DNA from: an uncultured Spirochaetales bacterium
GTDB lineage: Bacteria > Spirochaetota > Spirochaetia > CAZAKE01
NCBI GenBank assembly: GCA_964485495.1
Contig: CAZAKE010000004.1
Location: 4,190 to 68,189, forward strand
DNA: 64,000 bases
Direction: 5' to 3'
In this document: piece after piece, positions 57,419 through 61,988 of the stretch
How positions within the stretch are numbered: position 1 is the stretch's first letter
How the letters are laid out: each line of letters begins with the position of its first letter
Notes under the pieces: model-generated
What the model saw: the letters and a program-made list of their open reading frames with translations, nothing else
The model's database searches: none
Told to the model about the DNA's origin: nothing
Translations under genes and position numbers: made by a program

Positions 57419-58720
57419 TTACACAGTTTCGCTAGTGCCTTCACTGTCCTTACCTCTGTTCCGAGAAAGCAGCAGAAGTATGACAGACACCACTAGAATT
57501 AGAATAAGTGCAATACCGGCAAATATCCAGATTTTATCTATACTTTCTCGAATTTCTAACCGAATCGGGATTCGTGAAGGAGAAAACCGAGCCTCTCCGG
57601 TGTCCGTGAAGGAAAAGACGATCTCGGCGGCATATTCGCCGGGATCGCGAGGGGATTCGATGCGCAGGGGGATCCGCTCCTCTATGGAACCGTCTTTCGG
57701 CACATCGATCGAAACACCCTCGAACAGCACATCTTCAATCCGGCCATCCGCATATTCGATGCCGACACGTTCGATATCGACGGTTACACCGGCATCATAG
57801 CCGAATGATTCCAGTACCACGGTGACTTTCCCGATACCCATAGAGTCGATTTTCAGCACTTCGGGGATAGAAACTAGGTCCACCCTTCCGAGAAATCCGT
57901 CGGTGGCTTCCGAGAGCCGGTCCGACAAGGAATCATCCGAATCCGCGGATTCTACCGGTTGATCGGTACCTGGTCGGTCCGCCACACTCCCTGCTGTTTC
58001 GGCCGACATGGTACCACCATCACCAGATCGTGAGGTCGTGGTGGAATCTTCCGGTGGAGTTACCGCGGCTACTTCCGCGTACGTCGCCGACAGCTCTTCG
58101 GCCATTCTCCGGGCATCGGTGGCTGCGCCGATGCCGAGGATTAGGATTTTCCATCCTTCCCGCTGTATCGATTTCGTATTTGTAAGAAACGCGTGATTGA
58201 AGCTACCGTCTGGTGAATAATACTTGCTGTCCGGTGGCGCTTCCTGGATACCGTCGGTGAGTAGAAGAAGGTATTTTCGCATTTCGGACGCTGTCACCGA
58301 TTTGACGGCCGCATCCAGAGCATCCAGGGCGTTGCCGATATCGGTATAGCGTCCGTCGGCCTCGAGTGAGGCAACCTTCGAGTGTAGAGAACTCCTGTCC
58401 GTCGCGACCCTTTCCGATACCAATCTCACGGCTTTACCGAAGAAGGCGATGATGGTGACCCTATCTCCTTCGATCAGCAGCCGGTCTACCAATGATTCTT
58501 TCACGTATTGCCTGACAGCGGCAATCTCTTCTTCCATAGACAGAGATTTATCTAAAACTATGAAGACATCTATATTCTCATCTCTGGAATCGGCTATCAC
58601 CGGCATGAACGGAACCATGATAAGCAGTGCGATCACGATGATCCGATTTCCACACAATTGGTATCGCGGGACCAATTTCCGGTGAGTCGTACACGAGTGG
58701 TTCCATTTTAGATGTATCAT
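57419..58720 (-). CDS. von Willebrand factor A domain membrane protein (BatA/BatB-like)
   Basis: It has an N-terminal TM helix, a vWA domain with the MIDAS motif DVFIVLDKSLSM, an acidic linker, a beta-rich domain and a C-terminal TM helix. Confidence 0.75.
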   Translation of the reverse strand: MIHLKWNHSCTTHRKLVPRYQLCGNRIIVIALLIMVPFMPVIADSRDENIDVFIVLDKSLSMEEEIAAVRQYVKESLVDRLLIEGDRVTIIAFFGKAVRLVSERVATDRSSLHSKVASLEADGRYTDIGNALDALDAAVKSVTASEMRKYLLLLTDGIQEAPPDSKYYSPDGSFNHAFLTNTKSIQREGWKILILGIGAATDARRMAEELSATYAEVAAVTPPEDSTTTSRSGDGGTMSAETAGSVADRPGTDQPVESADSDDSLSDRLSEATDGFLGRVDLVSIPEVLKIDSMGIGKVTVVLESFGYDAGVTVDIERVGIEYADGRIEDVLFEGVSIDVPKDGSIEERIPLRIESPRDPGEYAAEIVFSFTDTGEARFSPSRIPIRLEIRESIDKIWIFAGIALILILVVSVILLLLSRNRGKDSEGTSETV

Positions 58721-58783: not shown

Positions 58784-58816
58784 CGTCTTTACATTTCCCT
58801 TTGCTTACTGATAATG

Positions 58817-58846: not shown

Positions 58847-60892
58847 ATGGCAAGTATAGATCTTCCCAAGAGTCCGATGGTTTTCCATCCGGAGAAGCGG
58901 AGCGCAGTGGGATCGCGCAACTCTCTCGCTCAAGAAAGTCGTGATCAGCAGGCAGAAGTAGATAGGCTTCTTGAGGAAGAAGTCGATAAAGTTATAAATC
59001 ATATCAATACCAAACTCCCCAAAGAAGTCCTTGAGCGAATGGACGTCATGGGAGGATTGAAAGAGAAACTTTACAACTATTTCAACCAAAACTACCAAAA
59101 CATGTTCAATAGGTACATTGTGACCACTGAAGATGAGATGGTGAAGAAGGTCCGTAACTTTATCGACCGCGAGGAGATGAAGGTCCTTACCCGGTATACA
59201 CCGAAAGAGATCGCCGCCCTCTTAGACGAGGTCGGTGGAATGGACAAGTTCAATACCGGTGAGATCGAGAAATCCATCGTCAATATGTATGGACACCTCC
59301 AAGGACATATCCAACGCGGTGTCAACGACCTGGAAAATCTCACGAACTCACTCTTACGACAGAAGACCGATGTCGGTGCATTCATCAGGGGTGAAAACGC
59401 ATACTCCGTTGTGAAGTGTTCTTTTAAGGATAACTTGTTCAAACCGAAGACTGTTTCCGACGTGAAGATGTCGGTGAATATCCTCGATTCCGAGCTTATC
59501 AGCCCGATCTTCCACTACCAGGTCACTGTGGAATACCTCATCAAGGAACTCATCTCAAAGAACATCATAGATGAGATCGAAAAGGACATCGAAAAGCTCA
59601 AGGATCAGCTCATCGATGAGGGCAAAGAGGAGCTAAACGATTCCGAGATCATCTTCCAGAAGATGGATAGGGTCGAGAAGTTTACGAGTGACGACTCTGA
59701 GAATCCCAAGTCGAACAGGTATAAGTACGTTGCGAAACACCTTATGGATCGGATCGAGGGGTTGCGGGCGGAGATCGACCCCGAAACCTTCGATCAGTTG
59801 AACATTAGAGAAAACCTTAAGCAGATCGTCGACATCGAGAACATTCGAAATCGTGGGTACAACACGGCGATAAACTCGATCACCTCGATACTCGACACTT
59901 CCAAGATGGGGTATCAGTACATCGAGAATCTCAAGAATGCCCGTGAGCTCATCATTCGAGAATATGAGGATACCGACCCCAAGGACCTTCCCGACGAAAG
60001 ATATCAGATCAAGTTGAAGTACTACGATAACGCTCAATTGATCGAAGAGCGAAAGGCCTACGACGTGCAGATCAAGTCTTTCGAAGTCGAGGTACAGCAT
60101 CTGTGGGACGTTCTCGAAATGGTGTACGTAGATTCTAAGATGCTCAAGCGTATCACCGACTTCTCGGACCTTTCCAAGATCTACCGGCGGAAGATCAGAC
60201 GCAAGATCAAGGCACTCACCGGTGAGCCGGTATACGAAGATATCGATAAGTCTTGGGATGAGATATCCTTCGTCAAACCGGCGGAGACGCAGGTCGAACA
60301 GATGAACAGGACATATGTCTTTGAGAAAGACAAGCTCAGTAAGAAGATAATACTCATGGAAAGCCGTCTGCAGGAGATGTATGGGTTCCGGTATCCGATT
60401 CAGAGAAGGGTGATGGAAGACCGTCTTGCCTTCCTGCAAAGACAATATCTCTCCTTCGATTATTTGATAAATCCCTATCACATCCAACCGGGTCTCCTGC
60501 TTGATCTCGACATTACATCGATCAAGCGTAAGAAAGCGACACTGGACGGTATGGCCAATGTCTTGAACGAATTCCTCCACGGCGTGTCGAAGGGATTTCA
60601 GGATGCCGCATTTGCATCATTCTCACGGCGTAGGTCGACGGTAAGAGAAGACATCGACATGCATTTCACCACCGATATCGCTCAACTCGAAGAGGAAGAA
60701 GCGGAAGACGGTGGTGGTCAGAGTGCCGGGGCAAACTATCTTGATATGTTGAATGATGACGGTGGATCCGATAAAACCGGCGGTGCTAAGGCTGATTCGG
60801 GTGTGGTCGATCAGGAACCGAAGAGTAAGCGTAGTCGGAAAAGGGGACGGCCGAAGAAATCGTCGAGTGATGATGGACTGACGACTCTATAA
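58847..60892 (+). CDS. cfpA: Cytoplasmic filament protein CfpA-like coiled-coil protein with a basic AT-hook-like C-terminal tail
   Basis: The 681-residue product is coiled-coil-rich and has the C-terminus ...[26 protein letters not shown]. Its size and its position, followed by a ~340-residue unknown gene and then a PPDK-like gene, match the cfpA-unknown-ppdK arrangement in T. pallidum, as I recall it. The identity call is inference from synteny and size, not from alignment. Confidence 0.6.
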
Positions 60893-60909
60893 GAGTACTG
60901 TGTAAATCG

Positions 60910-60944
60910 GAGTACCCTTCCGTCAGGGGGGGTACTCTTTTTTT
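60910..60944 (+). terminator. Rho-independent terminator after the cfpA-like gene
   Basis: Stem GAGTACCC (60910-60917) pairs with GGGTACTC (60930-60937) around an 11-12-nt loop, followed by T7 (60938-60944). Confidence 0.6.
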
Positions 60945-60962
60945 AAATAAGGATGGGACGAG

Positions 60963-61988
60963 ATGAGTAATACAAGCTATGAGTTCGAGGGATTCGCCAC
61001 GAGAGAGAGTTTCAACAAGTCGCTGCAACATTTTCGCGCTGTCTCGGGTATTGTCGCTGATTTCGAAGACGGTCATAACTTGGCGGATATCCTCACGGAA
61101 CTACTCGTCGACAAGGAACTCGAGCAGAATCAGATCCCACCGATTATTAATGCGCTGCTCGTAGATAAATATCACTATCATTACGAATCCATGAACCTCA
61201 CGGAAACAGTAGAAGATTTTTCGTTTCATGAGGAGATACGATCCTGGGACGGTGTCGACCTCGTCCTGGCATACGCCCATCCGGAGTTAGGATATACGGT
61301 TATAAATCCGAAAAATTCAGCTCACTGGGAATCTATTCACGGACTCAAGAAAAACGAGTTGCTTATTATCTTTGCCGGTGCATTCACGGAAACCGGCAAG
61401 GCAAAGCTGTACAACAAAGCCATTGCGGCGATTCGGAGCCTTTTCGAAGGGAAGAAACCGAAATCTATCGATGACCTACTGAAGGGTAATTGTGCATTTC
61501 AACCCTATGCCGACGAAAGCGAGCCGGAGGAAGACGAGCACGTCGAAGAGTCGACGAGTTACCGGCCGGCTTCGGCGGCAGATTCGGGCTCTGAGAAGAA
61601 CACTATTGAGGAGACGGCCCCACCGAAGGCTGTCGAGAAAGAGAGCGGTTCGGCACGAAAGCGGATGACACCGCTATATTCGGTTCCGGTAACGAATGAG
61701 CTGTTTCATAACGGAAACGTCGAAGCGTGGAAGAAGATCATCGCCAGCTATACGAACAAATATCCCGGATTGGAAGTCTACGTTTTCTATGACGGCGAAC
61801 GAATACATGATATCAATTCTCTGTTCAAGTGGGGGAAGGTAAAACACGGTAGCTCGATCCTGTTCGCAGTTGCGGGTGAAAACATCAAAGACGTCGCGAA
61901 GTTGCAGCGGTATCTACGACAAGGGGCGAGTCCGAAGTTCGAAGATTTCCTCAGATTCCCAGTCAATAAGATATTGGCATTGTTTTAG
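60963..61988 (+). CDS. Hypothetical protein between cfpA and the PPDK-like gene
   Basis: The 341-residue product has an acidic/Ser-rich central linker and no motif I recognise. Its position corresponds to the unknown gene between cfpA and ppdK in T. pallidum. Confidence 0.5.
   Translation: MSNTSYEFEGFATRESFNKSLQHFRAVSGIVADFEDGHNLADILTELLVDKELEQNQIPPIINALLVDKYHYHYESMNLTETVEDFSFHEEIRSWDGVDLVLAYAHPELGYTVINPKNSAHWESIHGLKKNELLIIFAGAFTETGKAKLYNKAIAAIRSLFEGKKPKSIDDLLKGNCAFQPYADESEPEEDEHVEESTSYRPASAADSGSEKNTIEETAPPKAVEKESGSARKRMTPLYSVPVTNELFHNGNVEAWKKIIASYTNKYPGLEVYVFYDGERIHDINSLFKWGKVKHGSSILFAVAGENIKDVAKLQRYLRQGASPKFEDFLRFPVNKILALF

Follow-up and report, generated by a model that had tools for sequence, protein, structure and literature searches.

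An AT-hook motif in the C-terminal tail of the spirochete filament protein CfpA suggests a direct link between filament and chromosome

The cytoplasmic filament protein CfpA is encoded in a 64,000-nucleotide stretch of DNA from an uncultured, free-living Spirochaetales bacterium (GenBank assembly GCA_964485495.1, contig CAZAKE010000004.1, positions 4,190 to 68,189; referred to here as "the window"), and close to its C-terminus the protein carries an AT-hook, the short R-G-R-P motif flanked by lysine and arginine. Sequence comparison indicates that the motif is under selection, and it is conserved in many relatives of the window protein. The hook, together with a weaker R-G-R in Treponema pallidum CfpA, suggests that the filament may hold the chromosome directly. 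CfpA has reportedly been known since 1996, and the phenotype of cfpA mutants, with condensed chromosomes and a failure of division, is said to date from 2001; we know of no molecular link between filament and DNA that has been proposed for CfpA in the searchable literature. An AT-hook built into a bacterial cytoskeletal subunit would be a new arrangement. If the reading is true, the CfpA polymer would bind the chromosome by an intrinsic motif and without an adaptor, and the conserved R-G-R(P) hook, resting as it does on the recognition of a motif, makes a 25-year-old question about the mutant phenotype simply testable.

The AT-hook and the tail that carries it

The protein is a CfpA of 681 residues, as the initial annotation had proposed from the open reading frame. 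It matches the NCBIfam equivalog NF040882 (cfpA_ASD) at 1201.4 bits, against a cut-off of 500, with residues 5-608 aligned to model positions 1-604/605, and a precomputed match to Pfam PF27473 (CfpA_C) exists for an identical protein. The NF040882 match ends at residue 608, so that the family model leaves the final 73 residues uncovered. The initial annotation had quoted the end of this tail correctly and had picked out in it the R-G-R-P core flanked by Lys/Arg, within an interval whose start (60780) is the middle position of a codon and which is correct to within a base.

The AT-hook consensus of HMGA1, reportedly set out by Reeves & Nissen in 1990, is R-G-R-P flanked by K/R. The hook in the window reads KRGRPKK, of which RGRPKK is identical to the consensus core, and three elements of the AT-hook pattern (Pfam PF02178; SMART SM00384) are present: the R-G-R-P core, lysine or arginine on both sides, and a segment predicted to be disordered. 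In the six reading frames of the window the pattern [RK]GRP[RK] occurs once, in the CfpA tail. No Pfam family other than AT_hook (PF02178; gathering score 17.4 bits) matches this tail, and the score of the match depends on the context supplied (18.2 bits for 24 amino acids, 17.4 for 80 and 16.4 for 40); for full-length CfpA the family is not listed at E<=0.01. The hook is exact by the textbook pattern and borderline by the Pfam profile score. As potential sites for such a motif, A/T runs of at least 6 occur at 4.6 per kb in the 53%-GC DNA of the window.

CfpA relatives are encoded by at least 516 GTDB species, and at 50% identity the family comprises 229 representatives. Tails were examined in 120 close homologues, in 80 species-representative loci (the 80 closest of those species) and in 120 homologues centred on T. 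pallidum, so that the motif frequencies over 254 distinct tails given below come from a sample with a bias towards relatives of the window protein and of T. pallidum. The tail is hypervariable, compositionally biased and rich in G, S, K and D; in a 74-sequence alignment its mean column entropy is 2.14 bits, versus 0.57 in the core. AlphaFold2 (AF2), in a model of low confidence overall, assigns a predicted local distance difference test score (pLDDT) below 50 and no secondary structure to residues 593-626 and 637-681. The sole helix predicted in the tail, residues 629-636, lies over the YLDMLN motif.

Four islands of conservation emerge from the same alignment: Y631-N636, G652-V-V-D655, R666-G667-R668 and G677-L678...L681. 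The relatives share a common layout, in which an acidic stretch (common among them at the place of QLEEEEAED) is followed by YLDMLN, a hypervariable Ser/Lys/Ala/Pro linker, GVVD, the basic cluster that includes the hook, and a terminal peptide. A YLDMLN-like motif is found in 95% of the 254 tails and GVVD in 76%. The motif of the terminal peptide (Table 1), present in 92%, is more widely conserved than the AT-hook, and the peptide survives without a basic cluster in T. primitia (...GEIREI). It has the look of a short linear motif in its own right, and the comparison sets both this peptide and the YLDMLN helix apart from the hook. Distant CfpA members end in ...EIREL, ...LDEL or ...LLREI.

Conservation of the hook among relatives and in Treponema

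R-G-R is present in 81% of the distinct tails, G-R-P in 43% and the canonical [RK]GRP[RK] in 33%. The canonical hook was observed in 80-83 of the 254 tails, versus 0.3-0.8 expected from composition-preserving shuffles, a comparison that is inflated because the sequences are related and the counts are not independent events. Column conservation in the 74-sequence alignment is 92% at R666, 78% at G667, 86% at R668 and 45% at P669, and the residue that follows R-G-R is proline in 89 of 210 cases, arginine in 47 and lysine in 44. The distance from the hook to the C-terminus is 11-16 residues in nearly all tails, and the net charge over the last 30 residues is at least +4 in 244 of the 254 (96%). 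Across 46 species loci R-G-R-P is written with all six arginine, four glycine and four proline codons; the peptide has therefore been kept while the synonymous sites turned over.

The hook is also found far from the window protein. KKRGRPKK is present, in a tail ending NLLREI, in a protein of 31% identity encoded on a 32%-GC contig, whose orthology is confirmed by the kept gene order of cfpA, a TP0747-like gene and a pyruvate phosphate dikinase (PPDK)-like gene. The orthologues with KKRGRPKK (L083 1330-3204 / P0203, P0283; P0192) belong to a low-GC (32%) organism and are deep-branching, and their tails are long, Lys/Glu-rich and otherwise dominated by lysine. Variant tails occur among L035, L050, L051, L066, P0366 and P0401. 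Some relatives have two G-R-P hooks, one before and one after GVVD, for example RRRGRPPAKAKRGRPRKG; the two-hook tails of L051 and L066 read RRRGRPP...KRGRPRKG. In other relatives a permuted K-R-G-R-K-P-K or K-R-G-P-K-P-R stands in place of K-R-G-R-P-K. The idea that the proline tracks the AT-richness of the genome was dropped, the GC content being 0.501 in loci with GRP and 0.487 in those without.

By these comparisons the canonical hook is typical of CfpA of the Marispirochaeta/Sediminispirochaeta/Spirochaetaceae type, with scattered occurrences elsewhere, and its proline is clade-specific. The core conserved across the family, as judged from the aligned tails, is R-G-R inside a basic cluster, with the terminal peptide more universal still. 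The comparison thus shifts the focus to R-G-R plus the basic cluster and away from the proline.

The initial annotation had asked whether the basic, GRP-containing tail extends to Treponema. Residues 1-399 of T. pallidum CfpA were taken from supplement 2 of PMC10600179, with peptides and gene context from the proteomics supplements of PMC6248270 and PMC5015957, and these residues joined to the C-terminal core of a Treponema metagenome-assembled genome (MAG) served as the query for Treponema tails. T. denticola was not among the 120 matches listed and is represented here by T. pedis, a close relative whose sequence is available. The T. pallidum tail contains GRRGRR and ends ...AIREL. That of T. 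pedis (GRGRRRTKSGIKEI, end KKGSVDSGRGRRRTKSGIKEI) contains GRGRRR, and that of Gracilinema caldarium ends AKPAKRGRKSRSAGSDGLKEV; all three have R-G-R and none has GRP. T. phagedenis (GKGRRGKKSAIREL, end KKAGTVDSGKGRRGKKSAIREL) has GRRGKK, with R-G-K instead of R-G-R, and likewise no GRP. An Arg/Gly-rich basic cluster stands at the homologous place in all four species. The answer for Treponema is mixed: T. pallidum, T. phagedenis and T. pedis keep the basic cluster, and T. pallidum and T. pedis also R-G-R, but none of the three has GRP, and T. primitia lacks the cluster itself.

In other respects the CfpA proteins of T. pallidum, T. phagedenis and the T. denticola group resemble that of the window: they are orthologues in the same neighbourhood, with the same tail length (678 vs 681 amino acids for the protein) and layout, and the basic cluster precedes a terminal peptide of the I-R-E-L type. 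They differ in their proline-less tails and in having FMDMVN (T. pallidum) or FIDMLN in place of YLDMLN.

Chromosome tethering and its alternatives

R-G-R is the triad that HMGA1, Lsr2 and Bv3F insert in the minor groove of A/T-rich DNA, and its change to AGA abolishes binding (PMC8476142). The best-supported reading of the CfpA tail, which we hold with slightly less than even confidence, is that the filament tethers DNA through many hooks along its length. CfpA would then be a protein of two parts, a highly conserved and largely helical core (residues 1-608) that builds the filament and a disordered tail of 73 residues that carries the hook, and each subunit of the polymer would project one hook on a flexible disordered "leash" of about 60 residues. 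A single hook would grip the minor groove of short A/T runs weakly, and thousands of them, on a ribbon spanning the length of a very thin cell, could provide a high-avidity and largely sequence-independent attachment of the nucleoid, by which the layout and partition of the chromosome would be coupled to the filament. A damping or regulatory effect on the hook, of the kind that acidic segments exert in HMGA and CarD, may come from the acidic segment just upstream. Such an array of hooks fits the chromosome condensation and filamentation of the T. denticola cfpA mutant, a phenotype that the initial annotation had mentioned and that is borne out by PMC3398590, citing Izard 2001.

Known AT-hook proteins offer partial parallels. 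HMGA1 shares with CfpA the core (RGRPKK in HMGA, KRGRPKK here), a disordered region and an acidic segment in the same chain, and differs in being a small chromatin protein with three hooks, whereas CfpA is a polymer-forming cytoskeletal protein with one. Closer in layout is CarD of Myxococcus xanthus, whose unfolded C-terminal domain carries RGRP hooks behind an acidic segment, binds the AT-rich minor groove and has been proposed to act in nucleoid localisation (PMC4374960); in CfpA, too, the acidic segment lies upstream of the hook. CarD is, however, a transcription factor that binds RNA polymerase and has four hooks, whereas CfpA has one (two in some relatives) and would gain its multivalency by polymerisation. 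The tail is not a strict HMGA-like domain, since it has one hook and not three or four. Lsr2, Bv3F and H-NS (R-G-R / Q-G-R loops) share the R-G-R triad with CfpA tails; in them it lies in the loop of a folded domain and in CfpA in a disordered tail, with no relationship of sequence or fold. The attachment of a large assembly to chromatin by an AT-hook has a reported precedent in ELYS (PMC2267255).

The known links between bacterial filaments and DNA are otherwise made through adaptors (ParM-ParR, TubZ-TubR, bactofilin-PadC-ParA and DivIVA-RacA), and in eukaryotes the tails of lamins provide such a link. The outcome proposed for CfpA is the same as in the ParM, TubZ, bactofilin and DivIVA systems, namely a filament coupled to DNA; in those systems the DNA-binding protein is a separate one, whereas in CfpA the motif would sit in the filament subunit. 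To our knowledge an intrinsic-motif architecture has not been described for any of the four. In a full-text literature search, with older subscription papers outside its scope, neither an AT-hook nor DNA binding was connected with CfpA in any paper found.

Several observations weigh against tethering by the hook. Isolated single AT-hooks bind weakly, and each CfpA subunit has one, compared with three in HMGA and four in CarD. PF02178 is reached at E<=0.01 in only 8 of the 118 forty-residue tails of relatives. Treponema sensu stricto lacks the proline, R-G-K replaces R-G-R in T. phagedenis, and the tail of T. primitia is acidic, with its basic cluster missing; CfpA can therefore function without a strict AT-hook. 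The mutant phenotype itself was described in T. denticola, whose lineage is represented among the sequences by the close relative T. pedis, which has no GRP. Members of about 45% identity, some of about 620 amino acids (P0130/P0276 and other representatives, one labelled a Deltaproteobacteria MAG), are short-tailed and do not have the module; the CfpA family may extend beyond the spirochetes, or the bin labelled Deltaproteobacteria may be contaminated. UniProt text places the filaments against the inner membrane, and the basic patch could therefore equally face lipid. Finally, the sequence data establish the motif, where it sits and that selection has kept it, together with a prediction of disorder for the tail; from these we infer DNA binding, the multivalency or avidity of the array and the link to the mutant phenotype.

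Among the alternatives, the one that survives best, though we consider it unlikely, is that the basic cluster and the terminal peptide (G-L-K-x-L) form a linear motif for filament bundling or for the docking of a partner. In the former case the motif would bind an acidic segment or surface of a neighbouring CfpA, "zipping" 4-6 filaments into a ribbon; in the latter the partner might be, for example, the product of the adjacent TP0747-like gene, an arrangement that would resemble the disordered linker and C-terminal peptide of FtsZ. The persistence of the terminal peptide beyond the hook (92% of tails, including T. primitia and distant members without a basic cluster) argues for such a role, as do the presence of acidic (-6) and basic (+7) patches together in one tail, the pI of 5.6 and net negative charge of the core, and the adjacency of cfpA to a TP0747-like gene from T. 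pallidum to the 31%-identical orthologue. Charge complementarity alone, however, would select neither the fixed glycine and proline nor R-G-R over mixtures of K and R, and in the low-confidence AF2 monomer model the tail docks nowhere. Bundling or docking is, moreover, compatible with DNA binding by the hook.

More doubtful is an anchoring of the ribbon at the inner membrane, beneath the periplasmic flagella, through binding of the polybasic end to anionic phospholipids. The location given in the UniProt text would suit it, as would the retention of net charge in the last 30 residues of 244 of the 254 tails regardless of the exact motif, with Treponema tails keeping the charge and not the proline. 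Against this, the basic cluster is predicted to be coil, offers neither an amphipathic helix nor any aromatic or hydrophobic residue, and gives way to an extreme terminus that is acidic or polar; charge alone also leaves the conservation of R-G-R and the frequent R-G-R-P unexplained. Like bundling or docking, membrane anchoring could coexist with DNA binding by the hook.

Little credence can be given to a third alternative, in which an RG-rich or extended hook binds RNA rather than DNA and the filament could hold RNA or ribosomes. Extended AT-hooks have been reported to bind RNA, and tails of the Treponema type are RG-rich (GRGRRGR), in the manner of RG/RGG boxes; the motif in the window, by contrast, belongs to the compact, canonical class of DNA hooks, in which GRP has basic residues as its immediate neighbours, and the reported mutant phenotype concerns the chromosome. 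It is hardly credible that the hook arose by chance or neutrally, without a specific role, in a disordered tail that is basic and contains Gly and Pro. The tail is compositionally biased and fast-evolving and the Pfam score borderline, yet 80-83 of the 254 tails have a canonical hook where shuffling would yield less than one, the hook keeps its distance from the C-terminus, the synonymous codons have turned over, and the hook recurs at 31% identity, in the orthologue whose genome has 32% GC.

The reading of the tail as a DNA tether can be carried further, although only tentatively, to a CfpA that would serve as a built-in chromosome scaffold of spirochetes, an analogue of the lamina with one R-G-R(P) hook per subunit, multivalent and adaptor-free, which would explain the mutant phenotype and whose module would be found in at least several hundred species. 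In such a scaffold the minor-groove hook of each subunit would be R-G-R, with R-G-R-P instead in the majority of non-treponemal lineages.

The CfpA core and the cfpA locus

By orthology, the CfpA of the window probably builds a cytoplasmic filament ribbon under the inner membrane. Its N-terminus (17 residues) matches MASLDLPKSPNVFHPEK of T. pallidum, residues 1-399 are 78% identical to those of T. pallidum CfpA in a gap-free alignment, and the gene neighbourhood is kept, which together establish orthology to T. pallidum TP0748. The order VWA, cfpA, TP_0747-like and PPDK corresponds to T. pallidum TP0752, TP0748, TP0747 and TP0746. The nearest named CfpA proteins are those of Marispirochaeta aestuarii (81%) and then Sediminispirochaeta smaragdinae (78%), and the treponemal assignment made by the initial annotation is not upheld. 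An identical CfpA protein is present on a Joint Genome Institute (JGI) metagenome contig.

The description of the protein as a coiled coil, or of its core as intermediate-filament-like, could not be established. In the AF2 model (mean pLDDT 58.8) long helices of 31-46 residues are broken by three beta-hairpins, at 186-213, 358-393 and 549-558; intermediate-filament-like or coiled-coil-rich proteins such as crescentin, FilP and Ccrp have a central segmented coiled-coil rod. The model is probably of low confidence because its alignment contains no member below 69% identity. The core of CfpA, an abundant protein of the cytoskeleton, found no match in a sequence search of the PDB, and a Foldseek comparison of the model with the PDB gave none either (best E 0.14, TM about 0.1).

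Table 1. Features of the cfpA gene, its product and its surroundings, in window positions
Feature	Position	Strand	Remarks
AT-hook core R666-G667-R668-P669	60842..60853	+	AGG GGA CGG CCG
C-terminal tail, residues 609-681 (73 residues)	60671..60889	+	predicted disordered; first half acidic, isoelectric point (pI) 4.05; end basic, pI 11.05
Acidic stretch QLEEEEAED, residues 613-621	60683..60709	+	15-residue windows net -5 to -6
YLDMLN, residues 631-636	60737..60754	+	80-92% column conservation (74 sequences)
GVVD, residues 652-655	60800..60811	+	G652 91%, V-D 74-76% conserved (74 sequences)
Basic cluster, residues 659-671 (13 amino acids)	60821..60859	+	9 K/R, rest S/G/P; net +9
Terminal peptide DDGLTTL, residues 675-681	60869..60889	+	motif G-[LIM]-[KRT]-[EST]-[LIVM]
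cfpA coding sequence	58847..60892	+	681 amino acids, 79.2 kDa, pI 5.4; stop 60890-60892
CfpA core, residues 1-608	58847..60670	+	covered by the family model; putative filament-forming part
Sigma-70-like promoter candidate TTTACA-16-GATAAT	58788..58815	+	upstream of cfpA; consensus match only
Intrinsic terminator after cfpA	60909..60948	+	strong; 13-pair stem (60909-60938), then T-run
TP_0747-like gene, 341 amino acids	60963..61988	+	downstream of cfpA; Pfam PF27497 (TP_0747_N) on identical metagenome contig
VWA-domain membrane protein gene	57419-58720	-	upstream of cfpA

The promoter candidate upstream of cfpA is weak, with one consensus match found versus 3.3 in shuffles. Downstream, the TP_0747-like protein is, from its conserved place beside cfpA, the obvious candidate for a partner of CfpA. 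Two antisense open reading frames, one over cfpA (59633..60580, minus strand, 315 amino acids) and one over its 3' end (60786..61076, minus strand, 96 amino acids), are very probably spurious, given the strongly conserved frame on the other strand; the second, moreover, runs across the terminator and into the beginning of the next gene. Erroneous names conceal the family in the databases, where many public CfpA entries stand as "cytochrome C oxidase subunit II" and two from JGI as "archaellum biogenesis ATPase FlaH".

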